Of a stretch of 39,715 bases of DNA, positions 1 through 39,574 are shown in pieces. The stretch covers positions 1 to 39,715 of the forward strand of contig CAZCHB010000001.1 in the NCBI GenBank assembly GCA_964498235.1, given 5' to 3'. The DNA is from an uncultured Planctomycetales bacterium (GTDB lineage Bacteria; Omnitrophota; Gorgyraeia; Zapsychrales; Fredricksoniimonadaceae). The translations under genes and the position numbers were made by a program. The notes under the pieces are model-generated. The model ran no database searches and was not told the origin of the DNA. It saw nothing but the letters and a program-made list of their open reading frames with translations. Position 1 is the first letter of the stretch; every line of letters starts with the position of its first letter.

Positions 1-3000
1 CATAGGTAATGTGCTCGGGATTAACCACAAGATTATTATCGTTGTCTTTTTTAATAGTAAAGGTAAGGCTCTTAACTACCTCACCTGGTTTATCTGGATT
101 GGCTTTATTAATATCCCACGTGAAGGTCGCTTTATCCGCAACAGACAAATTCTGCGCGGATGGATCGGCGGTGCTGACAAAATTACCATCATAATTATTA
201 ACCAATAAAAACGATGTCGGCTTAATCTGGGCCTCATTCAAGGTCATGGATTGCAGTTCGGCTGTTGTTGCAATGACAGGTTTTGTTTGCGAAGCATTAT
301 CTGTCGGTATCTCAACCGTGATGCCTCGGCCATCCGCGCGGGTCATTACCACCTGTTTCAAACCATAATCGTCATCATAGGCACTTTTAAATTTACTATA
401 TTTTTTAGCTTCCTCTTCTCCCACCATCGATACAATCTTAGCCTTAACCTGTGCTTTTTGTGCGTCGCTAAGCTTTTTCTCTTCTGAAGGTGGTTCTTCT
501 AAGCGGCCCGTTGCCTTGGCGACAACGCCTGGCAGCATAGGCACATTCATTTCCCCGCCGCTAAAAACAAAACCCCACGCGCGGCCGCGGTTATCTTCAT
601 TGTAGAGCGGAGAGGCCTTCCACTGTGCATCGCTTGTTTCAAAACGCCATCCCATTTTTCTTGAATGATTGTCATCGGCCGTTGCTGAATCAATGCTTGT
701 CATCAACTGGCCTGCCCCTGTCAATAAACGCCCGCCCGTGATCTCATAAGAAGAATCGGAAACCGGGCTAAAGCGGCCATAGGTGTCAATGTTGCCGCCA
801 AAACCATTGTCATAATTTTGGTTTGTATGGGAGGTGATAGCATATTCTTCTGGAATATATCCTTCAATAAAGCCTTGCGGATTAATTTTTACCCGTCCGT
901 CCTTCTTTAATTGGTTAAGGACCTCGACGCCCAATTGGCTTTGGTGGATGCGGACACTGCCCCATTCTTTCTGGCCGTAAATATTTTGGACTAAATTCTC
1001 CGTCCCAAAGAAGTTACGGCTGCCGTTATCCATCTTGACTGTCCCGGATAAGACCAGGCTGTTAGGGTCTTTAGGGGCCAGACTTCCCTGCATGGAGAGG
1101 TGATACGCGCCTGTTTCTACAAGGCCGCCATTAAAATCCAGAATATCCAAATCATGACGGGAAACCTTGCTTTCTATATTGCTTGTCAGCGGTGCATCCT
1201 TGGTGATCCCATTGAAAATGCTGGCATTGATGGCATTGAAATTAAAGGTCGGCATGCCGTCTTGGAGATTAAAATATAACGCTGATTTGCCCTCACTAAT
1301 GGCTGTCCTTAACTTACCATAAGCTTTGCCTTGATCCAGATTGTTCATCCCTAGATCAGGTGAATCATTCATATTCAAATGTTCTTTTAAAGAATCGAAG
1401 CCTGCTTCATCAATGGTGCTAAAAAGAGACCCTGTTCCGATCGCCCCCTCTAAAACAACACCGCTGTTAAGGCTGATTGGCTCAACCCCGCCTCTGGTCC
1501 CTGGCCGCACATTCGCCGTTGTTTCGCGGGAATACCATTGCCCGCTGCCGCCTAAGGCTGCCTGATCAACTAATCCTGTTGCGTCAAACTTCACTTCATT
1601 AATCTTAACATTGCGATGCCCGGCTTCTGGCGTATATTGGTCAATATCACCCGTCGCAAGAACATCCAATCCAGCAGGTCGCATAACGCCTCTGTCTGTC
1701 AACAACATGTATTTTAAACTGCTTAATCCTGCTGGATCAGGCATGGCGGTTAATTTGCTGTTGATGATAATATTTTCATTTGTCAACGGATTAGCAACAA
1801 TTCCGACGGTAGAATGATCAACAACATAGGTCGGTTGACCATCAGCGTACCTGACCGTATCGGTTTTTGTCCAGGCAGGAATACCAAATGAGATCGCATC
1901 AAAAACATCCGGGGCATTGCTCTGCGCGCTTGTTGTAACGGTGGCATAGGTCCCGTTATCAACGCGCATCTTGCCATTAACAATATCAATCCCATAAATG
2001 CCATCGCGGTATCCCTCATGGGGAGTCAAGGTGACATTATACGTTGGGGTACTGGTAATCGTAAAATTTTTATCCATCAAGACCCGCACGTCGCTGGTGT
2101 CCTGCGATAATTGGCCGGCGATAAAATGATCGTTAAAGGTGATGCGGCCTTCCGTTAATCCGCTGCCGTAAGGACGGGCATAGGGCACGCCGTCATCCGT
2201 GACCATCTCACCGTTTCCAGCAAAGGTTCCTTTTGGATCAGCCGCAGAAAGGCCAATCTTCGCTAATATCTGGCCATCGGTTAAATTCCCAACAACGCGG
2301 AATAAATTTTTAGGGTCGCCCTGTCTTTGTTGGAAGGGCGTGGCTGGTTCGTTGCCTGCTGGCTCGCCTTTGAATTTGACTTGAACAGGGATTACTGCAT
2401 CTTTAACGCCCTTGAATGTATATTGGAATAATTTTGATTCAACTGGAACTAATTGTTCGATAACACGCCCATCCCTTGTCACATTCCCGGACGTCGCCTG
2501 CGCCCAGCCGCTGACATATTTCATATCATTAGGGCTAAACTGCGCGCCTTGCGCGCCGCTTATCCCAAACACTAAATCCTTGGTCACCGACGTATTAACC
2601 GTAAAAACGTACTTACCCTTATATTCACCATCTTCAACTTCCGCCCCTGACCTGGACTGGTTCCCAAATCCTTTTTCAAAAATCAATTGCGCTTGTTTAT
2701 TCGCGCCAGTCAAAAAGAAATGGTTGTGGGTTTTCCCGTCAGGCGTGATAAAAATAAATTGATTGCGGCCTAAAACGAGGGCATCATTTTTAGCTAAATT
2801 GCGGGCACTTAAATAGGTTTTACCCGGCGTATCCAGATAACGAAAAATACCATAATTCTCAATGACACCGTTGTCGGTGACCACGAGGCGCTCGTCATAG
2901 CTCTTATTGTCCTTGCCGCGGCCGAAATTAAATTGGCCGCCTTTATCGGCGGTAAATATTTCCGGCCGCCCGTTGCCGGGATTGATCATACTGCCATGGG

Positions 3001-6000
3001 CATCGTAAAGGACATGGACATTACCATTTTTGTCTTCTTCAATAAAACCTGCGTTAATATTCGCTTCTGCTTCTTTAAATCCGCTGACCAAGGCCCGTGT
3101 TGCCACCGTGCTGTACCGGCCAACAGCAGGATCCCAAATAAAATTCTTATGCTGAGCGGCCAATCCTTCTTTATCATCGCCCGCACCTTCTTGACGGGGC
3201 ATCTTCCACGCCCCATTGGTCATCGTATAAGCACGCCCGCCGTTAATAACAGCGCCAGCTTTAACCCTGCCATTATTATCAACGGCAATGGAGGGAAGGC
3301 CTTGAACCTTGACAAAATTCACATGCTGTCCATTATCAAAAGTCTTGAAACTGCTGCTTAACACATTGCTTAAGCCTAAATTCTGACCGCTGGTTAAAAC
3401 AATGTTGGCCAGGTTTTTGTCTGCAACGCCTTTATCATCAAAGCTCCAGAACTTCATTGTGCCTTGGAAATTGCCTGACGCAGGAGCGGCGCCGACAAAG
3501 GAGAAAATCTTATCGCCCCCACGGCTTTCGGCACCAATACTAAAGGTAATGTCATTGATGCCCGCATCAGCAGCGCTCTGCGGCAAGACGCCTAAGAATT
3601 GCATATCTGCAGGGCTGTAGGCCTTGCTGATAATCCGCTCATTGATGTTCTTAACAGACCCTTGTGCCTGACCTTGTAATACTCCATCTTTTTTCATTTC
3701 CGCAAGCCATCCATCGCCGCCTTCTGCCTGCACAAACGTGCGCAGGTCGTTTTCTTCCGCCTGGTTTAAGCCAAACATTGATCCGAAATATTTCGCATCA
3801 CCGATAATGCCCATAGTGTTAGCGCCCTGGGCGTTTTTACCTAACCTAAAACCTGTACTGGCAAAATTAGGATCATTAAATCCTTCACGGCTTAAGAAAA
3901 ATTCATTTCTCTTTCCATCAACGCCCATGATTTGAGTTGCCCCTAATTTCCCATACCCCCAAATCTTGCCGAATCTTGAACCGGAGACATTGCTGTAAAT
4001 ATTAGCGGAAGAACCCCATGGGGATTTTGAATCAAAACCTTTGTTAAAGGATGTGGCGACAAACCCGTGCGGAACAGACGCCTTCCATGTGGTGTTAAAT
4101 TCAACACCTTGATCATGCAGGTTTTGTTGATTACGCACATCCGTAAAATTTCCTTCTAAATTAACATTCGCCCCAAGAACTAAGGCGCTTTTAATTGTGT
4201 CGGCAATTGGTGTCCTGCCATCAACAAAGCTATAGCCGTTCTCATCTTTGACAACTAGCGCAACGCCAACCCCTTGGTCATTCTGCACTTGCTGGCCTTC
4301 AGGCGTGATGCCCCATTGTTGAACCTTAGCCGCGGTCTCCGCGTGCATAATAGAGACAGCATAGCGGCCTTCCTTACCGGGCTGTTCATTCCACGCAAAG
4401 GTCATCATATTCTTATCAACACCGGGACAGAAAATCGCACCGCTGCCGACGCCTAGGTATTTTCCATTGACCATGCTCTCCGCGTAAGCATAGCTGGAAT
4501 CATATCCATTTTTACTTACATCGTGTAATTGCGGTCTCCATGTAAAACCATACCCTTCTAATTTTCGCGCTTGTTCCTTTGTGATATATGCAGAGATGGG
4601 AACTTCCACTACAGCCGCGATAAAATTTGTAATGGCAGGCTGTTCAAGCGCATTACTAATATGATCGATATTCATAAGCCCGGGAGTAATCATATTTTGC
4701 TGCCATAAAGCCAAATGGAATTGATCGTCCACGGAAGGCGTAGAAGAAGCCACGGGAATGCCCGATATATAATTTGGCGTAATCAATCCTCCAGCCGCGC
4801 GAGAGGTTCCAAGCGCATTAACGCCTGAGCCAACAACATTGTTAGCTTTTATGGAATTGTAAAGTTTTTCTGTTTGAACAGCCCATTGCGGCGTAAATCC
4901 TGTTAACCTGTCAATGGTATCGCTGTAAGCAACAAAATTAGCCACTGATCCCCAGGTGCCGGTTGATAAAAATTGCCCCAAATAATTTGTCCCAAAAAGC
5001 GCGTCCTTACCGCTTTCGATAAACGCACCCATATTGCTTCTGGCGCTGGCGCCGTTATCAGGCCTGGCCTCATTAATAAATTTATCCGCCGTTCCTTGTG
5101 TATTAAAAATGTTCCCAATATGATTATTCCCCTGATCAAGGATTGACATAAGGCCGCCCGCAGCAACAGAGGAAGCGACAAATACAAGCGCGCGGAATTG
5201 TGCTTTATTGGTACGGTAATCGTAGGTGCCGTCATCCTTGCCAATAAAAGATTTTTCTAAAGAAGCAAAAGCCATTGAAAGAATCGCCCTGGCAGCTCCC
5301 GTCTTTAACGCACTGTAGGCTGACTGCCAAACATCATCCCCTGATCTACCATAAACAAACCCGCTCGTAATACCTGAGGTTCCCGCGCTAACAAATTGAC
5401 CTAAGCCTTGGGAAAAACCATCACTGGCTTTGATGCCTGCCTGCGCGGCAATTAAACGCACCGCCATGCCGCTAAATTGTCCCGCTATAGTTGGAACAGC
5501 GTCCCACATCACCTTGGACATACCGTCAACAAATGACACCGGTTTAATATCATCCGCAATATATATCAATTGCCGCGTATAGGCTGAGTCATACGCGCCC
5601 GACCATGACGTGCCTTTAAAAGAAATGCCTTGGGATTGCACGACGCCTGCAAACGCTTGCGGTTCAATAGCGCCGTCTTTAAGCGTACCCATGATTGCGG
5701 CTTTAGCTTCAGCACCTAAAGCGTCTAATTTCCCAGAAATATACTCCTGCTTAATCACGGCAGGATTAGCGCCTTGTGCTTCTGGAGGCAAAGAATTCAC
5801 ATAACTATCAGCCTGATCATTAAGAGCGGCGGCAACGGCTTGGCTTCCTTTTTCTGCCGCGCTATCTGAGCCGGCCAACCCCAAACTCGGCGTAAAAAAC
5901 GCCCGATCCATCAAATGATCCGCCGCCAAACTAAATGCCCCCACGGCCAAACTGCCGCCTACCGTCGAACCTACAATCATGAGCGTTTCTTTGATAATTT

Positions 6001-7546
6001 GATTTGAATCACTACATTCTTTTGCGGGGTCTGAACAAATCATGTCATCAATAAGCTTAACGATCTGATATTGCGCCTCCGCCTTGATCAATCCCAACAT
6101 TAATCCCTTGCCAAAACTCGCGGCAAAACCTGCCATGGTTAATTCCTTAGTGGCATTTGCGGCAACTGCGGATGCGCTCGCGCCTGGCGCGGCTGTTACG
6201 GCGCTTGACCCTAAATTAAAAAGCTCCTTAAAGAAATCGCCGATCTTATTAAAAATATTATTGATGCCGTTATAAACGTCTTTGATAAATCCGCCGATGC
6301 CCGTGTCCCCGGCTTCTTTGACCATTGCGCCCAATGCGCCTCCAGATGCGGCGGCGGCAGGATCTATATATCCGGCCCCATAGTTAATCCCCATCGACAA
6401 AGCTGCGGAGAGCAAAAACGCGGAATGGCCATCGCAAACACCTTGCATCACGCAGATACTTGTAATGGTGGAAACTAGCGATGACGCGGCAATCCCAAAG
6501 GCCATCCCGTACGGGCTTAAGACCGACATGGCAACCGTCAGCCCAATCTGGGTAAACAATTGTGTATCAGAAACAAAGCCGGGTAAATCCTTGCTTTGGT
6601 CGCGCCACTTATCGCCCCAGACAAATGCTTCTAAAGCTTGAGGAACAGATTCATACAGATTTGACTTGGCCGCCTTTAATAACAGCTTGCTAACAAAGGC
6701 ATAGCCATCCATTTTTTGTTCTAGGTCTTTTTTATCTAAAACTGACAGCTGGCCTAAATCAGCCACCGTAACCTTTTCACCCGAAACTTTTTTAACAGTG
6801 ATAAAATGTTCGCCCTTAAGGTGGACAATAAATGGCGCTTGGAGTTTTAAAATATCTTTGGGCTCTGCCTTAATGCTGGTGTAGTTTAATCCCAGCGCGT
6901 CCCCCACCTTATGGATCGCAAACAAGGTGCTTTTGAGTTTTGGTTCGCCAACCTTGATGATGTCACTCATCAGGTCAACAGAAATATTAAGCACCGCTAA
7001 TTCTTCCAGACTGCGGTTTTTATTTTGGGAATCAACGATATCTTTTAAGCTGTACGCCGCGCAATTAAGCGGATGAATGCCGGGCGCGTTTAACCAGCTA
7101 ATGATTTCCTGAATCTTGGCTTTATTAAATTTGGCCCTGGTCTCAACGTTTAACGCTGAGGATTCAGCACCCATTTTTTTATCCGGACTGTCTAAGTTGA
7201 TTTTTAAGTTAAGTTTATCTTTATCTTTAATCTGCTGTAATAAATACTCAACGCTTTTGGAAACTTGAACCGCCGGCAAAGGCATGGACATGCCGTTTTC
7301 ATTACTACGAACCATGCCAGCGCGTTCGCCCCAAATCACTGCTGGATTATAACCAAAAGCCCAGCTGATTTGATCAGGAATAAATGCGGTCAAAACAACA
7401 ATGGCAATTGTCCTAACCCATGCATTGAAACGACTTACGAAGATTGGAGCAGAAGGATTTAAAACGATGTTTTCCGTAACTGGAGCACCCTCAACGGATG
7501 GAGATGAATCAGGAGAATTATGTAAATTTTTCTCGTCGTGCATCAT
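1..7546 (-). CDS. Giant membrane protein, 5' part only (at least 2515 codons visible, gene continues past the left window edge). It has an N-terminal TM helix, a C39-like peptidase-like domain, a Gly/Ala-rich multi-TM block, then a long hydrophilic region.
   Basis: I read the reverse complement by eye from ATG ATG CAC GAC GAG (complement of 7541-7546) and found no in-frame stop down to base 1. All four minus-strand ORFs listed in 1-7546 (ends 2019, 3216, 4140, 5244) are in a different frame, and no minus ORF in the 7546 frame is listed. That is expected if the track omits ORFs lacking a stop inside the window. The N-terminus reads MMHDEKNLHNSPDSSPSVEG...WVRTIAIVVLTAFIPDQISWAF. Confidence 0.85.
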   Translation of the reverse strand, partial: MMHDEKNLHNSPDSSPSVEGAPVTENIVLNPSAPIFVSRFNAWVRTIAIVVLTAFIPDQISWAFGYNPAVIWGERAGMVRSNENGMSMPLPAVQVSKSVEYLLQQIKDKDKLNLKINLDSPDKKMGAESSALNVETRAKFNKAKIQEIISWLNAPGIHPLNCAAYSLKDIVDSQNKNRSLEELAVLNISVDLMSDIIKVGEPKLKSTLFAIHKVGDALGLNYTSIKAEPKDILKLQAPFIVHLKGEHFITVKKVSGEKVTVADLGQLSVLDKKDLEQKMDGYAFVSKLLLKAAKSNLYESVPQALEAFVWGDKWRDQSKDLPGFVSDTQLFTQIGLTVAMSVLSPYGMAFGIAASSLVSTITSICVMQGVCDGHSAFLLSAALSMGINYGAGYIDPAAAASGGALGAMVKEAGDTGIGGFIKDVYNGINNIFNKIGDFFKELFNLGSSAVTAAPGASASAVAANATKELTMAGFAASFGKGLMLGLIKAEAQYQIVKLIDDMICSDPAKECSDSNQIIKETLMIVGSTVGGSLAVGAFSLAADHLMDRAFFTPSLGLAGSDSAAEKGSQAVAAALNDQADSYVNSLPPEAQGANPAVIKQEYISGKLDALGAEAKAAIMGTLKDGAIEPQAFAGVVQSQGISFKGTSWSGAYDSAYTRQLIYIADDIKPVSFVDGMSKVMWDAVPTIAGQFSGMAVRLIAAQAGIKASDGFSQGLGQFVSAGTSGITSGFVYGRSGDDVWQSAYSALKTGAARAILSMAFASLEKSFIGKDDGTYDYRTNKAQFRALVFVASSVAAGGLMSILDQGNNHIGNIFNTQGTADKFINEARPDNGASARSNMGAFIESGKDALFGTNYLGQFLSTGTWGSVANFVAYSDTIDRLTGFTPQWAVQTEKLYNSIKANNVVGSGVNALGTSRAAGGLITPNYISGIPVASSTPSVDDQFHLALWQQNMITPGLMNIDHISNALEQPAITNFIAAVVEVPISAYITKEQARKLEGYGFTWRPQLHDVSKNGYDSSYAYAESMVNGKYLGVGSGAIFCPGVDKNMMTFAWNEQPGKEGRYAVSIMHAETAAKVQQWGITPEGQQVQNDQGVGVALVVKDENGYSFVDGRTPIADTIKSALVLGANVNLEGNFTDVRNQQNLHDQGVEFNTTWKASVPHGFVATSFNKGFDSKSPWGSSANIYSNVSGSRFGKIWGYGKLGATQIMGVDGKRNEFFLSREGFNDPNFASTGFRLGKNAQGANTMGIIGDAKYFGSMFGLNQAEENDLRTFVQAEGGDGWLAEMKKDGVLQGQAQGSVKNINERIISKAYSPADMQFLGVLPQSAADAGINDITFSIGAESRGGDKIFSFVGAAPASGNFQGTMKFWSFDDKGVADKNLANIVLTSGQNLGLSNVLSSSFKTFDNGQHVNFVKVQGLPSIAVDNNGRVKAGAVINGGRAYTMTNGAWKMPRQEGAGDDKEGLAAQHKNFIWDPAVGRYSTVATRALVSGFKEAEANINAGFIEEDKNGNVHVLYDAHGSMINPGNGRPEIFTADKGGQFNFGRGKDNKSYDERLVVTDNGVIENYGIFRYLDTPGKTYLSARNLAKNDALVLGRNQFIFITPDGKTHNHFFLTGANKQAQLIFEKGFGNQSRSGAEVEDGEYKGKYVFTVNTSVTKDLVFGISGAQGAQFSPNDMKYVSGWAQATSGNVTRDGRVIEQLVPVESKLFQYTFKGVKDAVIPVQVKFKGEPAGNEPATPFQQRQGDPKNLFRVVGNLTDGQILAKIGLSAADPKGTFAGNGEMVTDDGVPYARPYGSGLTEGRITFNDHFIAGQLSQDTSDVRVLMDKNFTITSTPTYNVTLTPHEGYRDGIYGIDIVNGKMRVDNGTYATVTTSAQSNAPDVFDAISFGIPAWTKTDTVRYADGQPTYVVDHSTVGIVANPLTNENIIINSKLTAMPDPAGLSSLKYMLLTDRGVMRPAGLDVLATGDIDQYTPEAGHRNVKINEVKFDATGLVDQAALGGSGQWYSRETTANVRPGTRGGVEPISLNSGVVLEGAIGTGSLFSTIDEAGFDSLKEHLNMNDSPDLGMNNLDQGKAYGKLRTAISEGKSALYFNLQDGMPTFNFNAINASIFNGITKDAPLTSNIESKVSRHDLDILDFNGGLVETGAYHLSMQGSLAPKDPNSLVLSGTVKMDNGSRNFFGTENLVQNIYGQKEWGSVRIHQSQLGVEVLNQLKKDGRVKINPQGFIEGYIPEEYAITSHTNQNYDNGFGGNIDTYGRFSPVSDSSYEITGGRLLTGAGQLMTSIDSATADDNHSRKMGWRFETSDAQWKASPLYNEDNRGRAWGFVFSGGEMNVPMLPGVVAKATGRLEEPPSEEKKLSDAQKAQVKAKIVSMVGEEEAKKYSKFKSAYDDDYGLKQVVMTRADGRGITVEIPTDNASQTKPVIATTAELQSMTLNEAQIKPTSFLLVNNYDGNFVSTADPSAQNLSVADKATFTWDINKANPDKPGEVVKSLTFTIKKDNDNNLVVNPEHITY

Positions 7547-7797: not shown

Positions 7798-7900
7798 AAT
7801 TAATGTCCAGACTGGACATTAATTGTGATTTTTTATCAAAACAATCTCCAGTCTGACAAAATTAATGTCCAGACTGGACAATTATTGTCCAGTCTGGAAA
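7798..7900. repeat. Array of four phased copies of the TGTCCAGWCTGGACA palindrome between the tadC stop and the giant-gene promoter
   Basis: Copy A at 7798-7824 is AATTAATGTCCAGACTGGACATTAATT, a perfect 13-1-13 palindrome. Copy B is degenerate (CTCCAGTCTGACA, centre 7852). Copy C has a perfect core at 7866-7880. Copy D at 7886-7900 is TTGTCCAGTCTGGAAA. The centres 7811, 7852, 7873 and 7893 are spaced 41, 21 and 20 bp apart. Confidence 0.9.
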
Positions 7901-12949: not shown

Positions 12950-13173
12950 TTCCAGCCTTGGAAAACCGCAGATAAAGGTTTAGGACGATAAAAATCTGTT
13001 TTTAATTGCTCATTAGGATCTGGGCTTTCCGTCAAAGATTTCTCAAAAGTCCAGCGGCGCTCCGCCAAATCCATGCCGGCCCAGCGAAAGATTTGGATCA
13101 GCCCGTACGCTAATAAAAAAAATGCTATTATCACAAAGGTAAATTCAATGGTCGATTGGCCGCGTTTTCTCAT
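12946..13173 (-). CDS. TadE-like minor pilin
   Basis: The 75-aa protein begins KRGQSTIEFTFVIIAFFLLAYGL, which has a G/QxxxEF class-III signal motif. It has 4-nt overlaps with both flanking genes. Confidence 0.65.
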   Translation of the reverse strand: MRKRGQSTIEFTFVIIAFFLLAYGLIQIFRWAGMDLAERRWTFEKSLTESPDPNEQLKTDFYRPKPLSAVFQGWK

Positions 13174-14525: not shown

Positions 14526-14533
14526 ATCCGTCT

Positions 14534-14869: not shown

Positions 14870-14881
14870 ATGCTCCCTGAT

Positions 14882-15720: not shown

Positions 15721-15744
15721 CCTTATTATACTGTTGACGCTAAA

Positions 15745-16116: not shown

Positions 16117-16173
16117 GTTGTGATCCTCCTTGATAAACGTTTCTATCTTTAAACAAAAACCTTTCAGGAAACC

Positions 16174-16554
16174 TTAAATCCCTGAAGGCATTGCTTGATT
16201 TGTAACCGGTTTGGATAAACCAGTAGCATACGTGGTAGTTTGTTCCCCTTCACGGACACGGTTTGTCACCGCGTCGGAACTGATGCCTTCAGCGCCTTCC
16301 GCTAAACGTTTGTTCTCGACGGAATCGCGGGTCACTTCATAATTACTTTGTTGATAATACGGTTCATACTGAACCGAATTTCCTAGTTTGTTTGTTGATG
16401 ATGTCATGTACACATTAGCATCGCGCACGCGCGCTTGTAAGGCACGCTGGGCATATTGCTGCATTGCAATAATCCCGGCAATAACTAAGGCAATCAAAAG
16501 CGCGTATTCCGCGGTGTTTTGGCCTTTTTTCTTTTTTAGAAAGTTTCTAAACAT
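16174..16554 (-). CDS. Flp/TadE-type pilin-like protein
   Basis: The 126-aa protein has the leader MFRNFLKKKKG followed by QNTAEYALLIALVIAGIIAM. An AAGGGGGA RBS lies upstream. Confidence 0.65.
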   Translation of the reverse strand: MFRNFLKKKKGQNTAEYALLIALVIAGIIAMQQYAQRALQARVRDANVYMTSSTNKLGNSVQYEPYYQQSNYEVTRDSVENKRLAEGAEGISSDAVTNRVREGEQTTTYATGLSKPVTNQAMPSGI

Positions 16555-17207: not shown

Positions 17208-18617
17208 CTAATTCTCCTCGGAAACACACTTAACATTAATGCTCAAAATTTGGTCCGCTTCGTTTTTAACCCCCAGCGTACTGATTGCAGCACACCCTGA
17301 TTTTAGATTGTCCGCTGTTTCATAAACATTTGGAATTAATAGTGTTACAATCCTAATGTGACTATTAAAAGCGATTTGCCCTTTAAATAACATTAATTGA
17401 GACCACTGATCGTCGCTTAAAAGCCTTGGAAAACAAGACTGCGCCTGCAGCTTTAGGAAATCAATATAATTATTGACCGGTCCCTCGGGACTTTCCGCCA
17501 TAGATAAGGGCCCGTTAAAAGGATGCTGTTTAAAAAATTCGCGCACAATTTCCCCGTCGCTAATCGACTCAGAAAAATTGCTAATGAGAACCTTATAGGG
17601 CTCATTATTCTCTGCGCATAAAATCACTGCGCGGCATTTCATGTTAGCTAACAAGATTTCTTTAGCAAAAAATCTCAGCGGCGCCTCTTGGCCGTAAGCG
17701 TCAACTATTAACATTTCTTTGTTTGAAATATTCATAAATTCTTTTATATCAACTACTTGTGTTCCTATCCCAACAATAAACTGCTTTTTGGGCGCACCTT
17801 CTAAAGGAAAACTGACAAACGCTTCTCCCTCTTTATCCAAAAGATCTATTTTAACAATGCCTTTCCCCGGCCGCCCTTGACACGATAAGAAAAAGTCAAA
17901 AAAGAAGGCCTCAAGCGATTCTCCTGCAACCTCTTTTATTACAATAGGTTGTAAATTGTTTACAAAAAGATTAGCCGCTGCTGTCAGCGCCCTCTCCAGC
18001 GGGGCCGGCCAATTTTTGCCCTCTTTCGCCTGAAGCCCTTGCAAGCGGCTATCCACACAAAAAGAGCTCCCATCTTCTAATAAAAATCTATAACCATAAA
18101 TCACCAAAGACCTATAAAGCAGTTCTTCCTTTAAACTATTGAAATCAAATGATTTAAAATCTTCTAGCGAGCTCATCCCCCGCCATGGTTTGGGAAAAAA
18201 ATCGTAATGCACGGCTTTTAAAATATACTCTCCCGCCCCTTGCTGAATCCCAGCATCTGTTAGCGCCATTAGCGGTTCATGATTAACTGTTTTAACTGCC
18301 GTTGGCAGCTCAATTTTTTCGTGCTTAACGAAAACAGGAGAGGGGCTTGCTTCTTCCAATGGCTTTACGCGCGGTTGAACAAATAACTGCGCCTTCTTTT
18401 CATAAGGAATTTGAAATTTTTCTTTTTGTTTACGGCCGCGGGGACTGCCAATTTTAGCTTCAATTAATACTTCATTGATAGATGATTTTGACACTTGGCG
18501 TTCGAATTGTGTTTGAATTTGATGCGCTAATTCCCGACAGGATAATTGGGGCAATTCACGCTTTTGCGTTAAAATAAAATGGACAATCTCTTCTGTCAGC
18601 TTATATTTAACGCCCAC
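17208..18617 (-). CDS. Unknown protein with an N-terminal helix-turn-helix-like domain, embedded in the Tad operon
   Basis: The 469-aa ORF has a GTG start. Residues 1-60 (KLTEEIVHFILTQKRELPQLSCRELAHQIQTQFERQVSKSSINEVLIEAKIGSPRGRKQ) look like a small HTH domain. I recognise no family in the rest. A palindrome copy lies 19-37 nt upstream of the start. Confidence 0.5.
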   Translation of the reverse strand: MGVKYKLTEEIVHFILTQKRELPQLSCRELAHQIQTQFERQVSKSSINEVLIEAKIGSPRGRKQKEKFQIPYEKKAQLFVQPRVKPLEEASPSPVFVKHEKIELPTAVKTVNHEPLMALTDAGIQQGAGEYILKAVHYDFFPKPWRGMSSLEDFKSFDFNSLKEELLYRSLVIYGYRFLLEDGSSFCVDSRLQGLQAKEGKNWPAPLERALTAAANLFVNNLQPIVIKEVAGESLEAFFFDFFLSCQGRPGKGIVKIDLLDKEGEAFVSFPLEGAPKKQFIVGIGTQVVDIKEFMNISNKEMLIVDAYGQEAPLRFFAKEILLANMKCRAVILCAENNEPYKVLISNFSESISDGEIVREFFKQHPFNGPLSMAESPEGPVNNYIDFLKLQAQSCFPRLLSDDQWSQLMLFKGQIAFNSHIRIVTLLIPNVYETADNLKSGCAAISTLGVKNEADQILSINVKCVSEEN

Positions 18618-18635
18618 CCTATATTTCCCCTAAAC

Positions 18636-18654
18636 AATGTCCAGACTGGACATT
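18636..18654. repeat. Palindrome copy E (AATGTCCAGACTGGACATT, perfect 9-1-9) between DUF192 and the HTH gene
   Basis: The core at 18638-18652 is exact. A left half-site TTGTCC at 18658-18663 implies a second centre about 21 bp away, the same geometry as copies C and D. Confidence 0.9.
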
Positions 18655-18664
18655 TAATTGTCCG

Positions 18665-19003
18665 TCACCAGCTGATTTGATCGCCGACGGCTGTACTGGT
18701 GCGTTCAATTGTACCAGCAGGAAGTTCAATGGCGCAAGCAGATTTCCAGAAAATAGGAGAGAGGTTAAAAGGCCTCAGGTTAGGGCAAAGGCCGACAACA
18801 ATGTTAACTTTATCGACAAAAATAACATCAATGGAAAAGCGCATAAAAAACATATGGACTGATTGGCAAGGCCTGATAATCAATCCCTCGCCTTGTTTTA
18901 ACGCATGCCTGCCAAGCAATCCTTTCATGCGCGCCAAAGACGTGTCAGCGAACACTGCGCTGTCCGCCAATTCACAATGACGTGTATTATTAAGGATTTT
19001 CAA
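18665..19003 (-). CDS. DUF192 (COG1430) family protein
   Basis: The 112-aa protein matches the DUF192 pattern (ADTSLARMKGLLGRHALKQGEGLIIRPCQSVHMFFMRFSIDVIFVD...AIELPAGT). It overlaps the ATPase gene by 14 nt. Confidence 0.6.
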   Translation of the reverse strand: MKILNNTRHCELADSAVFADTSLARMKGLLGRHALKQGEGLIIRPCQSVHMFFMRFSIDVIFVDKVNIVVGLCPNLRPFNLSPIFWKSACAIELPAGTIERTSTAVGDQISW

Positions 19004-30097: not shown

Positions 30098-32799
<2,702 letters not shown>

Positions 32800-35668: not shown

Positions 35669-35812
35669 GTGAAAAAGCATTTAAAAACACCAACGAATTT
35701 AGTAGGAAAAAAAAGACACGGTTTTCGTAAACGCATGGCTACCGCCGACGGAAGAGAAGTATTAGCCCGCCGCCGCGCTAAAGGCCGTCGAAAGCTTATT
35801 CCATCAGCCTAA
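35669..35812 (+). CDS. rpmH: 50S ribosomal protein L34 (47 aa, GTG start; not in the ORF track)
   Basis: My hand translation is [47 protein letters not shown]. This contains the L34 signature HGFRxRMAT..GRxVLxRRRAKGR. Confidence 0.9.
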
Positions 35813-35818
35813 ATTATA

Positions 35819-36040
35819 TTGTTAACAATGATCCCAAAGGTTCTTATTGCTACCATCAGAATCTATCAGCAGGCATCCTTCCTGTTGGCAATTCGATGTT
35901 GCCGTTTTTATCCTTCGTGCTCACAGTATGCGATTGATGCTGTATCCAAACATGGCGTAACCCGAGGAACTGCAATGGCTTTTAATCGTATTTTACGCTG
36001 CTCACCATTATCCCAAGGCGGATTTGATCCAGTAAGGTAG
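35819..36040 (+). CDS. yidD: Membrane protein insertion efficiency factor YidD (the real start is possibly the ATG at 35828)
   Basis: The motif [45 protein letters not shown] is the YidD signature. Confidence 0.85.
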
Positions 36041-36047: not shown

Positions 36048-37610
36048 ATGAATCAGAAGACACTTTTAGCAATTATTCTTTCCATTATGGTTCTATTTGG
36101 GTATGAAGCTATATTTGTTGCTCCAAAACGTGCCCAAATGTTAAAAGAATCGAAAAGTATTACTGAAAAAGAACTTACGCAAAATAAAGAAATTTTAACT
36201 CAGGTCACGGACGCCGTCCAAGAAAAAACCAAAAACAAGCAATTTGAAGGCAAAATATGGGAAATTAAAACCCCTTCATTTGTATCACATGTGACAAATG
36301 AGGGCGGCGCGCTCCATAATATTAAGGTGGGGGCAGGACACGCCTTTCCTTTAAACCAAATTATCACCATCAAGGGGATTAGTGAGTCGGAATTCAAATT
36401 GGTTTCACAAAACGCAGATAAGACGGTTTTATCATACCAAGATGATAAAAAGAGGGTTTTAAAGACATATGAAGTTAAGGATCGGAATACAATTTTAGCC
36501 AGAGTGGACATTAATTCAAAAGAAATGTCCAGTCTGGACAATGTTCAGTTTCAGATTTTCAGAGTGGACAATTCTTTGATTGATAGTAATGACAAACGTG
36601 ACATGGGGCTGGAGGAGTACTCAGTATCAGCTAATAAGAAAATATTTAGAAAAAACAATATTTCGAAATTTAATCCAAAAGAAAATAAGATTGAATCGAT
36701 TGATATTGACTGGGCAGGATTCCGGAATCATTTTTCAACCATTGTTATTCATCCTGATTTTGCGACGAAAGCCTATGAAATAAATACAGTTACAGAAAAA
36801 CAGTTAAGTATATATGTGACGCCTGCAAGCCAAAGCACCAGCTATGAATTTACCTGCTATATAGGACCTCAAGATCCAGCGCTCATGAAGAAGTACGAAA
36901 AGGGGATTGAAAACATATTTGCCTTTTTTAATTGGAATGTGCTCGATATTTTTGCCAAGGCAATATATTTCACAATTCCTTTTCTACATTCTATATTTAA
37001 AAGTTGGGGATTTAGTATTATTTTGATTAGTCTGATTATTTATGGGTTAACATATCCGCTAACATTTAAAAGCATGATGTCTATGCGAAAAATGCAGCAA
37101 GTCCAGCCGAAGATCAAGGCATTACAAGACCGTTTTAAAAATGACCCGCAGAAGCTAAATACTGAAATTATGGATATATACAAGAAAGAAAAGATTAATC
37201 CGCTGGGGGGGTGTTTACCGTTCCTGCTTCAAATGCCCATTTTTGTTGCTTTATATCAAGTGTTGTGGAGATCTTATTATTTTCAAGGAGAATCATTTCT
37301 ATGGATTAAAGATTTAGCCCTGCCTGACAGGCTATTTATTATGCCTTTTTCCTTGCCTTTATTAGGAAATGAATTTAATATATTACCATTGTTAATGGCG
37401 GCAGTTATGTTTTTACAACAGAAGATTTCGTCTAAAAATTTGGTTGTCACCGACGAGCAGCAGGCTATGCAGCAAAAAATGATGTTATATTTATTTCCGA
37501 TTTTTATAGGTTTTATTTTTTATAAATTTGCCAGCGGGCTATCGCTATATTTTACTGTTTTTTATGCTTTATCCGCCGCAACGCAGTGGAAAATGAGTAA
37601 GATAAAATAG
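36048..37610 (+). CDS. yidC: Membrane protein insertase YidC (long form with a periplasmic P1 domain)
   Basis: The 520-aa protein has an N-terminal TM segment and the conserved core NPLGGCLPFLLQMPIFVALYQVL...LYLFPIFIGFIFYKFASGLSLYF. Confidence 0.93.
   Translation: MNQKTLLAIILSIMVLFGYEAIFVAPKRAQMLKESKSITEKELTQNKEILTQVTDAVQEKTKNKQFEGKIWEIKTPSFVSHVTNEGGALHNIKVGAGHAFPLNQIITIKGISESEFKLVSQNADKTVLSYQDDKKRVLKTYEVKDRNTILARVDINSKEMSSLDNVQFQIFRVDNSLIDSNDKRDMGLEEYSVSANKKIFRKNNISKFNPKENKIESIDIDWAGFRNHFSTIVIHPDFATKAYEINTVTEKQLSIYVTPASQSTSYEFTCYIGPQDPALMKKYEKGIENIFAFFNWNVLDIFAKAIYFTIPFLHSIFKSWGFSIILISLIIYGLTYPLTFKSMMSMRKMQQVQPKIKALQDRFKNDPQKLNTEIMDIYKKEKINPLGGCLPFLLQMPIFVALYQVLWRSYYFQGESFLWIKDLALPDRLFIMPFSLPLLGNEFNILPLLMAAVMFLQQKISSKNLVVTDEQQAMQQKMMLYLFPIFIGFIFYKFASGLSLYFTVFYALSAATQWKMSKIK
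36499..36576. repeat. Three palindrome-family sites at exact 30-bp spacing inside the yidC coding sequence
   Basis: F1 is CCAGAGTGGACATTAATT (centre 36503). F2 has a perfect core TGTCCAGTCTGGACA at 36526-36540 (centre 36533). F3 is CAGAGTGGACAATT (centre 36563). The region encodes ARVDINSKEMSSLDNVQFQIFRVDNS. Confidence 0.85.
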
Positions 37611-37614: not shown

Positions 37615-37821
37615 ATGATATTCGAAGGTGATACAAAAGAGTTTGAGGGTTGTACAGTAGAAGAGGCTATTTGTAAGGCGGAAAAGTCTTTTGGTGCGTC
37701 ACGTGAAACCATGCAAATTAAGATTGTTTGTGAAGAGCAAAAAGGTCTATTTGGGATGAGGGGCGCAAAATTGGCCAAGATAAAGGTCAAATCCGTTCCA
37801 CGTGGAACTAAGAAGTCCTGA
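37615..37821 (+). CDS. Jag/KhpB N-terminal-domain-only protein (no KH or R3H domains)
   Basis: The 68-aa protein sits in the canonical jag position after yidC. EGCTVEEAICKAEKSFGASRETMQIKIVCEEQKGLFGMRGAKLAKIKV fits the Jag_N pattern. Confidence 0.6.
   Translation: MIFEGDTKEFEGCTVEEAICKAEKSFGASRETMQIKIVCEEQKGLFGMRGAKLAKIKVKSVPRGTKKS
37695..37710. promoter_or_regulatory. Degenerate parS-like site (13/16 match)
   Basis: TGCGTCACGTGAAACC compared with the consensus TGTTNCACGTGAAACA. Confidence 0.35.
37794..37809. promoter_or_regulatory. Near-canonical parS centromere site
   Basis: CGTTCCACGTGGAACT has a perfectly palindromic inner 14 bp (GTTCCACGTGGAAC) identical to the conserved parS core TGTTCCACGTGGAACA. 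It lies 67 nt upstream of the parA start. Confidence 0.8.
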
Positions 37822-37829
37822 ATTTTTAA

Positions 37830-37851
37830 ATTAATGTCCAGTCTGGACAAT
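37830..37851. repeat. Palindrome copy G (ATTAATGTCCAGTCTGGACAAT) between parS and the parA start
   Basis: The perfect core is at 37835-37849 (centre 37842), 34 nt upstream of the parA ATG. A weak half-site GTCCTG is centred 21 bp upstream at 37821. Confidence 0.9.
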
Positions 37852-37875
37852 AAATCCAAATAAATAGGCGTTTTT

Positions 37876-38685
37876 ATGGGAAAAACAATAGCTATATGTA
37901 ATCAAAAAGGTGGGACAGGAAAAACCACAACATCGGTTAATTTATCAGCTGCGCTTTCATTTGCTGATAAAAAAGTGTTATTGGTTGATATGGATCCTCA
38001 GGGAAATGCCAGCAGTGGCGTTGGGATTAACAAGAATGATATTCAGGTTTCTGTATACGACATATTAGTTCATAAATCCAAAATACAAGATGTTATCATT
38101 AAAACTAACTATAAAAATCTTGATGTTATTCCTTGTAACATTCAATTAACAGGCGCTGAAATTGAATTGGTTGGCGCCTTATCAAGAGAAACTAGGCTGA
38201 AGAAGGCCATTGAAAGTATTAAAGATCAGTATGATTTTATTTTTATTGATTCTCCGCCATCATTAGGGCTATTAACCCTTAATGCTTTAGTAGCTGCAGA
38301 TTCTATTCTGATTCCAATTCAATGCGAGTTTTATGCGCTTGAAGGAGTGTCACAACTCATTAATACTATTGAACTTATAAAAGATGGTCTAAATTCTTCT
38401 TTGGAGATTCAAGGTGTTTTGATGACCATGGCTGATTTTCGGACCAATTTAACTAATGAAGTTATTAATGAAATCAAAAATTACTTCAAAGATAAGGTAT
38501 ACAATACGGTTATTCCGCGCAATATCCGGCTTAGTGAAGCGCCTAGTTTTGGCAAGCCGATTAATTATTATGATCCAGCATCAGTTGGCTCAATCAAATA
38601 TAAAGAGCTTGCTCAAGAATTTTTAGGCATGCCTCAGGTTACAGCGCAAGCCATTCATCTAGGAGAAAATCAGAATGGACAATAA
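37876..38685 (+). CDS. parA: Chromosome partitioning ATPase ParA/Soj
   Basis: The 269-aa protein has a deviant Walker A (NQKGGTGKTTTSVNLSAAL) plus VLLVDMDPQGNAS and FIFIDSPPSLG. Confidence 0.93.
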   Translation: MGKTIAICNQKGGTGKTTTSVNLSAALSFADKKVLLVDMDPQGNASSGVGINKNDIQVSVYDILVHKSKIQDVIIKTNYKNLDVIPCNIQLTGAEIELVGALSRETRLKKAIESIKDQYDFIFIDSPPSLGLLTLNALVAADSILIPIQCEFYALEGVSQLINTIELIKDGLNSSLEIQGVLMTMADFRTNLTNEVINEIKNYFKDKVYNTVIPRNIRLSEAPSFGKPINYYDPASVGSIKYKELAQEFLGMPQVTAQAIHLGENQNGQ

Positions 38686-39574
38686 AGTTTTAGGCAAGGG
38701 GTTGTCAGCTTTAATACCGCAGCGCAAAACAGAGCAATATGTGTCTGTTTATTCAGAAGAAAAAAACAATGTCCATTCTGAAAGCAATAAAAAAGATGAA
38801 TTAATGTCCAGTCTGGACATTAATTTAATAAGAAACAACCGTTTTCAGCCGCGCAAAAATTATGATGAGTCTAAACTAGGCGAATTAAAAGCTTCAATTA
38901 AAGAAAAAGGCGTGCTTCAGCCTATTTTAGTACGTCCAGTTGGTAATGAATATGAAGTTGTAGCAGGGGAGCGCCGCTTAAGGGCCTCAAGAGAACTGAA
39001 CTTAAAAAAAGTGCCTGTTATTATTAAAAATATTACCGATCGCGAAGCTTTAGTTTTAGCATTGGTTGAAAATATCCAGCGGGAAGAATTAAACCCCATT
39101 GAAGAAGCCCAAGGGTTTAAGCGTTTGATCGAAGAATTTAATTTTACGCAGGAAACAGTGGCGGACTCAGTTGGCAAAGACCGCACAACCGTTACCAATT
39201 TTTTGCGATTGCTGAAACTGCCAAAAGAAATTCAAGATTTTGTTGCTTCGGATAAATTGTCGGTTGGACATGCGCGTACGTTGTTAAGTCTCGACGAGAA
39301 AATGCAAAAAAAGACAGCGGCGGATATTATAGCTAAAGGCTTGTCTGTCCGTCAGGTTGAGGCCATGGTTAAGAAAATTCTCGAAGGCCATCTAGCTGGC
39401 GCGCCTAAGAAAATCTCTTCTAAAGTGCGGGATATACAGATTCTCGAGGAGGAATTAAGCCGGACGCTGGGGACCAAGGTCTGTGTTGAAAATAAAAACA
39501 ATAAAGGCAGGGTTGTTATTGAATATTATTCATTAGACGACTTAGACCGTATTTTAGGAGTTATAAGAAAATGA
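38675..39574 (+). CDS. parB: Chromosome partitioning protein ParB/Spo0J
   Basis: The 299-aa protein contains LGKGLSALI, FQPRKNYDESKLGELKASIKEKGVLQPILVRP, GERRLRAS (CTP-binding box) and the HTH QETVADSVGKDRTTVTNFLRLL. Confidence 0.93.
   Translation: MDNKVLGKGLSALIPQRKTEQYVSVYSEEKNNVHSESNKKDELMSSLDINLIRNNRFQPRKNYDESKLGELKASIKEKGVLQPILVRPVGNEYEVVAGERRLRASRELNLKKVPVIIKNITDREALVLALVENIQREELNPIEEAQGFKRLIEEFNFTQETVADSVGKDRTTVTNFLRLLKLPKEIQDFVASDKLSVGHARTLLSLDEKMQKKTAADIIAKGLSVRQVEAMVKKILEGHLAGAPKKISSKVRDIQILEEELSRTLGTKVCVENKNNKGRVVIEYYSLDDLDRILGVIRK
38799..38825. repeat. Palindrome copy H2: a perfect 27-bp palindrome inside the parB coding sequence
   Basis: AATTAATGTCCAGTCTGGACATTAATT is the exact reverse complement of copy A at 7798-7824. 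It encodes ELMSSLDINL. A degenerate copy (AATGTCCATTCTGAAAG) is centred at 38777. Confidence 0.9.

Follow-up and report, generated by a model that had tools for sequence, protein, structure and literature searches.

A perfect palindrome inside parB, next to oriC, is real and is kept as DNA, not as peptide, across one class of uncultured Omnitrophota. With a probability that we put somewhat above even, this palindrome is the operator of a lineage-specific regulator (HTH469), with sites that span the Tad-pilus locus, a giant gene and the par/yidC region, and it would couple par to the pilus and giant genes. Conserved sites are found at the core promoter of the HTH gene and upstream of the giant gene, which points to a transcription-factor regulon. 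Omnitrophota are ultra-small, uncultured bacteria that probably live as predators or parasites, and we know of nothing on the control of their Tad pili and giant proteins. Both structures are thought to mediate host contact (PMC10066038). The analysis identifies a candidate regulator family together with a DNA motif that selection maintains within parB and yidC, close to oriC; no description of this family or of its motif was found in the literature. If the proposed regulation holds, it would offer a first concrete handle on how the attachment or predation apparatus is linked to chromosome partition.

Sites in the oriC region

The window, i.e. the whole stretch of 39,715 bp that was analysed, is the oriC region of an Omnitrophota genome, and every copy of the palindrome in it lies no more than 31 kb from oriC (Table 1). 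A first-pass annotation had described a perfect 27-bp palindrome in parB (AATTAATGTCCAGTCTGGACATTAATT) and its exact, distant reverse complement, and both were located, at 38799-38825 and 7798-7824. The parB codons, E-L-M-S-S-L-D-I-N-L, stand directly 5' of NRFQPR, and the yidC copy is read in the same frame as the parB copy (ATG TCC AGT CTG GAC, MSSLD), as that annotation had also stated. With up to three mismatches allowed, the 27-mer occurs at four places (7798, 7860, 37829 and 38799), against none expected from 100 dinucleotide-preserving shuffles. Its 15-bp core, T[G/T]TCCAG-N-CTGGA[C/A]A, has seven exact sites in the 39.7 kb window, where the chance expectation is about zero. Exact copies that had gone unlisted begin at 7866, 18638 and 37835, to which the K/M consensus adds 7886, and degenerate copies begin at 7847, 36496 and 36556. 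The copies at 18638 and 37835 point to the regulon pattern. The cluster at 7798-7900 lies between the tadC stop (7906) and the start of the giant gene (7546), and the scan of the window found no copy in the dnaA-rpmH intergenic region.

The site consensus, AAT-K-TCCAG-W-CTGGA-M-ATT, was derived from 56 distinct sites among the matches listed, with the core fixed by the search pattern and the flanks free; AT-rich arms extend the best copies to 27 bp. Dyad symmetry and conserved half-sites, as expected of an operator, are both present, and the one-mismatch variants of a motif-independent sample are otherwise unchanged. By our reading of the sequence, TAAATT-AA precedes the parA copy with a spacing equal to that of TATAAT-AA-palindrome in the regulator promoters of relatives.

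Table 1. Features of the window that bear on the palindrome
Feature	Position	Strand	Details
Giant gene, 5' part	1..7546	-	More than 2515 codons open, runs off the window; cluster 7798-7900 upstream
tadC-giant gene cluster	7798..7900		27-bp palindrome 7798-7824; partial copy at ~7847; cores 7866-7880 and 7886-7900
HTH469	17208..18617	-	469 aa, candidate binding protein; Tad-pilus locus; GTG start
HTH469-upstream copy	18632..18658		Core 18638-18652; 21 bp 5' of the GTG start; proposed autoregulatory operator
yidC-internal copies	36496..36570		Core 36526-36540 (MSSLDN); degenerate flanks 36496-36510 and 36556-36570, 30-bp spacing
Near-canonical parS, cGTTCCACGTGGAACt	37794-37809		3' end of a Jag_N-like ORF, upstream of parA; likely the true ParB loading site
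parA-upstream copy	37829..37855		Core 37835-37849; 20 bp from parS (5' side) and 26 bp from the parA ATG (37876; 3' side)
parA and parB	37876..39574	+	parA 37876-38685; parB 38675-39574; sites in the surroundings and 5' coding part
parB palindrome	38799..38825	+	Core TGTCCAGTCTGGACA 38805-38819; perfect 13-1-13; 130 nt past the parB ATG; read ELMSSLDINL

Conservation of the palindrome as DNA

Eighty parB loci, 795 kb in all, were collected through protein similarity only, with the motif playing no part in the choice. They hold 39 matches at no more than one mismatch (13 exact and 26 with one mismatch, against 0 and 0.6 in shuffled sequences), all of which fall within parB, yidC, parA or jagN. 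The parB site varies in position from +53 to +130 among orthologues, and is read as (M/I)SSL(D/E) or, in a second frame, as NFQSGN; copies in the alternative frame were found in loci L001, L039, L049 and L128. A check of synonymous-site conservation in parB orthologues, which the first-pass annotation had suggested, came out in favour of the DNA: those that encode SSL use the codons TCC AGT CTG in 14 of 20 cases, against 0.4% expected from parB codon usage, and the codons of a nearby conserved control peptide, ESKLE(D/E), are scrambled. Because frames and positions shift while synonymous codons stay frozen, selection acts on the DNA of the parB site. The annotation had named orthologues that lose the palindrome and keep the peptide as evidence against its proposal; the opposite is seen, since the palindrome is kept where peptide or frame change. 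Judged from these comparisons, the parB palindrome is a functional DNA element and not an accident of the peptide. It would be a natural example of a binding-type site held in essential coding sequence through frame changes and with frozen synonymous sites.

Regarding yidC, the core is exact, at the same position and in the same frame, in L003, L007, L049 and L126, and is present with zero or one mismatch in L160, L169, L174, L178, L187, L191 and L198. Relatives have one to three copies of the motif per 20 kb around parB, and sites occupy orthologous places, with few copies per genome, although ParB identity is 50-70%. In L027 the motif lies within the ParA coding sequence.

A pattern scan of GTDB genomes identified at least about 40 stretches from Omnitrophota/PVC genomes. 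Where similarity to window proteins allowed placement, they lie upstream of an HTH469 orthologue (at least 11), between tadC and the giant gene (at least eight) or, for the rest, in the par/yidC block. Among the matches listed, the tadC-giant gene site is found in L047, L075, L076, L077, L079, L089, L091 and L113, and at least four single genomes (JACPXN01, CAYNTZ01, CAZASA01 and JAGWOI01) have the motif at both the HTH469 promoter and parB. The giant genes of L013 and L054 also contain it. A genome-wide repeat or uptake sequence was rejected on copy number, which is low; Mb-size Omnitrophota contigs have a single strict match among the matches listed, a count that is indicative. An inversion of the segment between the 7.8-kb and 18.6-kb copies was also rejected, since the order cpaE/F, tadC, giant gene is constant in all loci seen.

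HTH469 and its promoter

At least 11 other Omnitrophota genomes have the core 3-45 bp ahead of the orthologous HTH469 start codon. The typical arrangement, TTGACG-17-TATAAT-AA-palindrome-3..5 nt-ATGGG, is found in L010, L043, L090, L105, L121 and L125, as promoters matched to consensus and not as mapped starts; loci with this architecture were mostly found through the motif search itself. L206, found through the protein rather than the motif, has a perfect core at -20. The five HTH469 homologue loci ascertained through the protein comprise one with a perfect palindrome, two with a degenerate copy or half-site and two with none; since only one of the five is perfect, autoregulation via the exact motif is not family-wide. 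The operator in the window precedes a GTG start, and its -10/-35 boxes are weaker than those of relatives. By its architecture, the palindrome at the HTH469 start is proposed as a candidate classic autoregulatory operator: it stands between the -10 box and the ATG, so that a bound protein would occlude the transcription start. A sigma-54 or -35 promoter element was rejected, as there is no GC at -12 and the -35/-10 boxes of the regulator promoters lie upstream of the motif.

HTH469 is composed of an N-terminal three-helix HTH (residues 9-53), an AT-hook-like basic stretch (PRGRKQK) in a disordered linker, and an alpha/beta domain of 350 aa. Its predicted structure has a pLDDT of 88.7, with a confident N-terminal HTH; sequence-profile and fold searches of the PDB gave no significant match, the alpha/beta domain included. 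Word-indexed searches recovered almost no homologues, and exhaustive search alone recovered the family, with 568 representatives. Weak similarity to transposase-type HTHs was consistent but below threshold: HTH_32 (26 bits, cut-off 33.7) in 30 and HTH_Tnp_Tc3_2 (22 bits, cut-off 31.5) in 29 of 30 members. A Tc1/mariner-IS630 transposase was rejected on these sub-threshold Pfam scores and on the domain and fold searches, which found no DDE family or transposase fold. The domain search likewise found no ParB_N, HTH_ParB, ParB/Srx or other partition-protein domain in HTH469. From genome to genome the gene keeps its place in the Tad locus, and two genes away cpaE/F (18990-21161) encodes a fusion of CpaF with a ParA/MinD-like CpaE domain. 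Where the upstream palindrome is perfect, homologues have the residues SCR(E/Q)L...PRGRK, and those without one have altered residues (TCQN/TCKN...PRAHK/PRVRK; GCRKL...VGRPSKK). Adjacency and this small-sample correlation make HTH469 the most likely binder of the palindrome.

The identity of the binder, the repression and the effect on parAB are what we infer. A dimeric, sequence-specific DNA-binding protein would occupy the palindrome at a small set of sites conserved in one Omnitrophota lineage. HTH469, bound between the -10 box and its own start codon, would cover the transcription start and so act as its own repressor. The same regulator may dampen jagN-parAB, with the parA copy acting by promoter occlusion and the parB copy as a roadblock, and this would tie partition-gene expression to the programme of Tad pilus and giant protein. 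No recognisable promoter adjoins the parB and yidC copies, which drift in position; a neighbourhood or structural role suits them no less well than classical repression.

Relation to parS and ParB

ParB is predicted to use a separate, canonical parS. This site (GTTCCACGTGGAAC) is the only good match in the window to the 16-bp consensus TGTTNCACGTGAAACA, and a GTTTCACGTGAAAC-type parS occupies the same place in every relative checked (L001, with two copies, L003, L005, L006 and L007). The palindromes gave no match to the consensus at up to three mismatches. The palindrome is thus not the canonical parS, as the first-pass annotation had held, the true and conserved parS lying 20 bp upstream of the parA-proximal copy. 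On either side of parS stand the yidC and parB copies, 2.15-2.28 kb apart, in the window, L003, L007 and L049. The palindrome shares with parS conservation in or near parAB, close to oriC (in the 5' part of parB, in yidC and in parA of relatives), and because the canonical parS is conserved there too, this conservation has no discriminating power.

It is highly unlikely that ParB reads the palindrome as a second, non-canonical parS. The placement inside parB recalls the parS within Bacillus subtilis spo0J, and both parS and palindrome read TGT...ACA with CCA/TGG. Against this, the palindrome is odd in length (15 bp) and more than three mismatches from the parS consensus, and ParB function leaves unexplained the copies in front of the giant gene and in the promoter of an unrelated HTH gene. 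The canonical parS upstream of parA is moreover kept in every relative checked, so ParB specificity has evidently not drifted. The first-pass annotation had raised either a second partition- or condensation-type site or a regulatory site coupled to parAB. For the former we found no positive evidence, and no second ParB-like protein among the window ORFs scanned; the latter is the better half of that proposal, because the palindrome outlasts peptide and frame changes in parB orthologues.

Alternative explanations

Two alternatives would dispense with a DNA-binding protein. That the element works as an RNA or single-stranded DNA hairpin, which terminates, attenuates or stabilises transcripts, is very unlikely. 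The parB copy of the window folds to -15 kcal/mol (z -5.4) and the 7866/7886 pair to -23.9 kcal/mol (z -8.7), but folding is weak in orthologous parB copies (-4 to -5.7 kcal/mol, z -0.7 to -1.35). Sequence changes affect one arm without a compensating change in the other (CCAATCTGG, CCATTCTGG, CCAGTTTGG), the K/M positions are asymmetric in 14 of the 56 distinct sites among the matches listed, and the likely transcription start of HTH469 falls at or downstream of the site in its promoter. An Rfam scan gave tRNA-Glu only, with no rRNA or structured-RNA match at the palindrome. These variants indicate that the conserved property is the sequence, not the pairing. The compensated stem and U tract of an intrinsic terminator were not found at the sites in general, and the 7866-7900 pair alone is terminator-like: cores 7866-7880 and 7886-7900 make up a 14-bp hairpin with a T-rich tail behind it (minus strand), right after the tadC stop, and this pair may therefore double as a terminator. 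The palindrome could also be a functionless by-product of the MSSLD peptide, or an in-frame mobile palindromic element of the Rickettsia type. The yidC and parB copies do share frame and peptide, and beta-strand-like segments of ParB, ParA (L027) and YidC can take up the motif as MSSLD(I/N). However, there are intergenic copies, the other parB frame is used in L001, L039, L049 and L128, and synonymous positions are frozen whereas codons of the control peptide are scrambled. Elements are 15-27 bp long with no target duplication, and occur in few copies per genome at orthologous places, with ParB 50-70% identical. A peptide-driven coincidence is contradicted by the frame switch and the codon test, and we give this explanation almost no probability.

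The remaining alternatives accept a bound protein. Another transcription factor, encoded elsewhere, might bind the sites, with HTH469 as one target and the operator picture of Tad, giant gene and par unchanged; we regard this as unlikely, while giving it some weight. Two of the five protein-ascertained HTH469 loci have no upstream motif, and sites occur inside giant genes (L013 and L054), where regulation by HTH469 is not obviously needed. The palindrome nevertheless spans the region from the -10 box to the ATG of the HTH469 gene in at least 11 genomes, and its presence tracks residues of the DNA-binding region, the usual signature of autoregulation. Distinctly less probable are centromere-like or chromosome-organising sites near oriC, in line with the partition- or condensation-type site of the first-pass annotation. 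Control of transcription would then not be the main task of the bound protein. It would either bridge or anchor the par block to the Tad/giant locus or the pilus machinery, for instance through the CpaE domain, ParA/MinD-like and joined to CpaF, or act as a roadblock, so that ParB-CTP clamps slide only within the ~2.2 kb from the yidC copy to the parB copy. Consistent with such a role are the location of all window copies within 31 kb of oriC, the bracketing of parS at 2.15-2.28 kb, the ParA-like domain of cpaE/F, and intragenic copies in essential genes with strong DNA conservation in spite of their drift, a typical trait of parS, NBS and KorB-type sites. The Tad/giant locus is itself origin-proximal, however, so clustering near oriC follows from the location of the target genes. 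HTH469 has no ParB/Srx or other partition domain (the fold search being uninformative), neither many sites nor spreading are in evidence, and the best-defined conserved placement is that of a textbook operator in a promoter. A fuller version, in which HTH469, the palindromes and the CpaE domain would form a second ParABS-like positioning or insulating system, with the yidC and parB copies tethering the origin to the Tad/giant apparatus or bounding the ParB-CTP zone, we consider improbable to a slightly greater degree. If true, segregation in these ultra-small, host-dependent bacteria would be physically coupled to their attachment machinery.

Comparison with known systems

In Bacillus subtilis, parS lies inside spo0J, and the palindrome resembles it as a short palindrome within parB near oriC, conserved at the DNA level in a coding gene. 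In contrast to parS, it has 15 bp with a central base instead of the 16 bp of TGTTNCACGTGAAACA, and it is conserved elsewhere in the promoter regions of genes outside partition. Rickettsia palindromic elements are at least 100 bp long, with many dispersed copies and insertion polymorphism, unlike the 15-27 bp, few copies and orthologous places seen here. The N-terminal HTH of HTH469 gives weak but consistent matches to Sleeping Beauty and to HTH_Tnp_Tc3_2/HTH_32, i.e. to the DNA-binding domain of Tc1/mariner-IS630 elements. As in the Sleeping Beauty PAI/RED and AT-hook arrangement, the HTH is followed by a GR-rich basic stretch, which could read the AT-rich arms. It differs from that group in that the matches are below curated thresholds, no DDE domain or fold was detected and the gene is syntenic, not mobile.

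With respect to regulators, those of the LexA, TetR and Cro/CI type are autoregulated HTH repressors whose operator lies over the transcription start. The proposed HTH469 operator is similar, being a dyad between the -10 box and its own start codon, with few further sites in a small regulon. Unlike these proteins, HTH469 belongs to an uncharacterised family, whose HTH is transposase-like and is followed by an AT-hook-like stretch and by a large C-terminal domain with no PDB match; several of the conserved sites are inside essential coding sequences. CtrA of Caulobacter crescentus, a response regulator with the motif TTAA-N7-TTAA, binds inside oriC itself. It differs from the present case in this motif and in that the dnaA-rpmH intergenic region of the window has no copy of ours; the concept would be alike, a single regulator that has sites both at Cpa/Tad pilus genes and within the origin region and couples surface organelles to the chromosome cycle. 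The IncP plasmid RK2 has a dozen KorB operators (OB), 13-bp TTTAGCSGCTAAA sites in promoter-proximal, promoter-distal and intragenic positions. Site families of ParB paralogues (Noc/NBS, KorB/OB) are not supported for the palindrome, as HTH469 has neither ParB_N nor HTH_ParB and the scanned window ORFs include no other ParB-like gene. KorB is a ParB-family protein and plasmid-borne, unlike HTH469 and the chromosomal system described here. Both would nevertheless combine odd-length palindromes in mixed positions with a single protein that joins partition genes to transcription control.

Motif copies and genomic setting

The 27-bp perfect palindrome within parB and its distant exact reverse complement were confirmed as genuine and far from random, with zero copies expected in shuffled sequence. 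The core of this palindrome, TGTCCAG-W-CTGGACA (15 bp), is found exactly at four further positions, and a relaxed consensus, T[G/T]TCCAG-N-CTGGA[C/A]A, adds one more exact site, for a total of seven in the 39.7-kb window. Translation bears out the statement of the first-pass annotation that the yidC and parB copies are read in the same frame. Its statement that the palindrome is not parS also holds: identity with parS was rejected, a separate near-canonical site, cGTTCCACGTGGAACt (= GTTCCACGTGGAAC), being located inside the 3' end of the Jag_N ORF. A GTTTCACGTGAAAC-type parS lies between Jag_N and parA in all five relatives fetched through ParB (L001, L003, L005, L006 and L007), in two copies in L001. 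Because parS is kept at this position in all the relatives checked, the window ParB most likely uses the separate site.

The window corresponds to the origin region of a chromosome from Omnitrophota. The minus strand carries, in order, gyrA, gyrB, a DciA-like ORF, dnaN and dnaA, followed on the plus strand by rpmH, yidD, yidC, a Jag_N-only ORF (jagN), parA and parB. The closest relatives of ParB (71% identity) come from Omnitrophica/Omnitrophota metagenomes. The DciA-like ORF (91 aa) occupies the usual place of recF, and yidD and yidC come straight after rpmH, without rnpA. In the Tad-pilus locus, the CpaF secretion ATPase and a CpaE/TadZ-like ATPase domain of the ParA/MinD type are encoded together in a single ORF of 723 aa, a fusion kept in relatives (716-721 aa). 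Pfam gave no match for any ORF of a run of seven in this locus; several of the small ones are mutually paralogous and conserved in relatives, and they are probably pilins or pilus accessory proteins. Just before the start codon of the giant gene, which runs off the window edge, with a few bases between, ends a promoter-like block of the gene's own that is strongly conserved, TTTGCTAAAAACTGGCA...TATAATATG.TATACTTCAATT. This block is also present in three loci from other genomes (L079, L089 and L113), and is common to genomes in which the N-termini of the giant proteins share only 33-49% identity.

Coordinates of motif copies and neighbouring features in the window
Feature	Position (strand)	Remarks
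Palindrome AATTAATGTCCAGTCTGGACATTAATT	38799-38825	Translated ELMSSLDINL, directly before NRFQPR
Exact reverse complement	7798-7824
Exact 15-bp core	7866, 18638, 36526, 37835	36526 within yidC; 37835 is 26 bp upstream of parA ATG
Relaxed-consensus site	7886
Degenerate copies	7847, 36496, 36556
Three yidC units	36496-36570	cCAGAGTGGACA, perfect core, tCAGAGTGGACA; exactly 30-bp spacing
Adjacent pair	7866-7900	Directly after tadC stop
Near-canonical parS	37794-37809	Jag_N ORF, 37615-37821
Half-parS-like GCGTCACGTGAAACC	37695-37710	100 bp upstream of near-canonical parS
Giant gene start	7546 to 1	>2515 open codons
Promoter-like block	7556-7600
Tad-pilus locus	7.9-23.8 kb	tadC, tadB, unknown and pilin-like genes, cpaE-cpaF fusion, secretin, cpaB
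ORF run	10103-16554 (-)	948, 451, 111, 129, 150, 123, 126 aa
HTH469 gene	17208-18617 (-)
CpaE-CpaF fusion	18990-21161 (-)
DciA-like ORF	32524-32799 (-)	Between dnaN and gyrB
GC skew sign change	about 35-36 kb
rpmH region without rnpA	35669-36040

The three motif-like units of yidC encode ARVDI, MSSLD and FRVDN, and the outer two are more alike each other than either is to the core. The adjacent pair after tadC forms a hairpin of -23.9 kcal/mol with a T-rich tail, and may therefore also terminate transcription.

Conservation of the site as DNA

In four of the five ParB-fetched relatives the core is exact near the 5' end of parB, and in the fifth it differs by two mismatches; two of them also carry the core at one fixed yidC position. 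A motif-independent sample of 80 parB loci (795 kb), taken from metagenome contigs by protein similarity, contained 13 exact and 26 one-mismatch matches (0 and 0.6 in shuffles), all within parB, yidC, parA or the yidC/jagN junction. Among orthologues sharing 60% identity or more with the window ParB, about 21 of 29 have the parB site; in the 80-locus sample none of those at 58% or less has it, and seven of these retain the yidC site. The position of the parB site ranges from +53 to +130 from the ATG, and it encodes either (M/I)SSL(D/E)(I/N) or, where the frame differs, NFQSGN. The synonymous-site check proposed in the first-pass annotation found the codon block frozen: TCC AGT CTG is used in 14 of 20 orthologues with the SSL peptide, against 0.4% expected from codon usage in the rest of parB (0.24 x 0.09 x 0.18), and the codons of a nearby conserved control peptide, ESKLE(D/E), are fully scrambled in the same genes. 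Orthologues keeping the peptide without the palindrome had been named as contrary evidence; the reverse was found, the DNA being kept through changes of frame and position. As judged from these comparisons, the palindrome is a lineage-conserved, putative protein-binding site acting at the DNA level.

One clade has a second codon-frozen variant, ATT TCC ATT CTG GAA (ISILEN), at +130, the position of the window copy. The same variant half-site, AATTTCCATTCTGA, occurs in four tandem-like copies after the palindrome in L079, about 340-230 nt before the giant gene starts, and in L210 at about -45 from the HTH gene. A regulator subtype that binds cooperatively or has a changed specificity may lie behind this variant.

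Occurrence at other loci

Scanning GTDB genomes with AWTKTCCAGWCTGGAMAWT gave at least 118 matching stretches, with about 69 chance matches expected in the full collection. Among the matches listed, contigs with the label Omnitrophota, PVC group or 'uncultured Planctomycetales' account for about 40, and the remainder are scattered singletons from unrelated phyla. Comparison with the window proteins placed most of the listed Omnitrophota/PVC stretches at three kinds of location: directly upstream of the HTH469 orthologue (L010, L030, L033, L043, L064, L067, L090, L105, L121, L125), in the gap from the 3' end of tadC to the start of the giant gene (L047, L075, L076, L077, L079, L089, L091, L113), and in parB, parA, yidC or the yidC-jagN gap (L022, L027, L035, L039, L040, L049, L053, L095, L099, L100). 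The few exceptions lie inside giant ORFs (L013, L054). Single genomes carry the motif at both the HTH gene and parB. Since Mb-size Omnitrophota contigs have one strict match each among the matches listed, there is indicative evidence against a dispersed repeat.

None of the four core sequences was found in the literature searched. The main study of Omnitrophota genomics (PMC10066038) reports that Velamenicoccia have Tad complexes and giant ORFs, proposes that these serve in predation or adhesion, and mentions no regulator or motif; a 2026 preprint on complete Omnitrophota genomes likewise mentions neither.

Alternative explanations and the role of the par copies

The conserved property is the sequence and not the pairing. 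Although the window parB copy folds well (-15 kcal/mol), an RNA hairpin as the functional form is made unlikely by the weak folding of orthologous parB copies (-4 to -5.7 kcal/mol, z above -1.4) and by uncompensated variants; 14 of 56 sites are asymmetric at the variable bases flanking TCCAG/CTGGA. A mobile element or a coincidence of the peptide is contradicted by the frame switch, the motif-independent sample and the codon test. The first-pass annotation had raised both a second partition site, now a minority reading, and a regulatory site coupled to parAB, which is supported in outline, as the motif recurs at the HTH promoter, in the tadC-giant gene gap and in the par/yidC block. As a less likely alternative, the copies may have a structural role, in bridging, in tethering via the ParA-like domain of the neighbouring CpaE, or in limiting the sliding of ParB clamps.

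The role of the parB copy is the weakest element of the argument. No promoter-like hexamers adjoin the copies inside parB and yidC, and the position of these copies drifts; selection seems to keep one to three sites in the roughly 2.5 kb surrounding parS-parAB. In four genomes parS is flanked by the yidC and parB copies, at 2.15-2.28 kb. We favour a regulatory reading, in which the sites would damp transcription of the jagN-parAB operon, or act as a roadblock on it, in coordination with the Tad and giant-gene programme. Before the parA-proximal copy of the window stands TAAATT-AA, with the spacing seen in the promoters of the regulator, and parS is 20 bp away, so that repression of parA transcription through this copy is plausible.

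The candidate regulator and its putative operator

The candidate binder is HTH469, a 469-aa helix-turn-helix protein of the Tad-pilus locus. Its family has 568 cluster representatives (E <= 1e-3), and the sole annotation, in one source, is 'helix-turn-helix domain-containing protein'. Every member opens with MGV.YKL and a conserved stretch some 80 residues long, which gave sub-threshold matches to HTH_32 in each of the 30 members tested, to HTH_Tnp_Tc3_2 in all but one of them, and a weak match to the Sleeping Beauty transposase DNA-binding domain (E = 0.17). In the AlphaFold model, which is confident (mean pLDDT 88.7), an HTH of three helices (residues 9-53) is followed by a disordered linker, basic and rich in Pro, that contains PRGRKQK, and then by a 350-residue alpha/beta domain; no significant fold match was obtained against the PDB (best E = 0.02, TM <= 0.12). 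The HTH would read TCCAG in the major groove, and a GR-rich stretch the AT-rich arms of the palindrome.

Five homologue loci were fetched through the protein, independently of the motif. One has a perfect core at -20 (L206), L207 and its relative L015 have a conserved degenerate version, TGTCCAATCTGA, and L210 has AATTAATTTCCATTCTGA upstream; nothing recognisable as the motif was found upstream in L208 and L209. In this small sample, the DNA-binding region reads SCR(E/Q)L...PRGRK in the homologues that have a perfect palindrome and differs in the others. In L015, from a 552-aa subfamily with a degenerate upstream operator, a perfect core lies inside the HTH469 homologue itself (3494-3508, codons LMSSLDI).

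The region upstream of the orthologues reads TTGACG-17-TATAAT-AA-[palindrome]-3 to 5 nt-ATGGG(C/T)GT, most examples having been found through the motif itself. In the window the site is 21 bp upstream of the GTG start and is preceded by weaker promoter hexamers. In six loci (L010, L043, L064, L090, L105 and L125) the start codon is 3-5 nt past the palindrome and about 20-25 nt past the -10 box; given this proximity, the regulator mRNA would be leaderless or nearly so and would lack a Shine-Dalgarno sequence. The order of -10 box, palindrome and ATG means that the palindrome covers the expected transcription start and reaches the start codon. The palindrome is most probably the operator of an undescribed HTH regulator of the Tad locus, and its placement over the predicted transcription start of the HTH469 orthologues is the same as in the classic layout of autorepressor operators.
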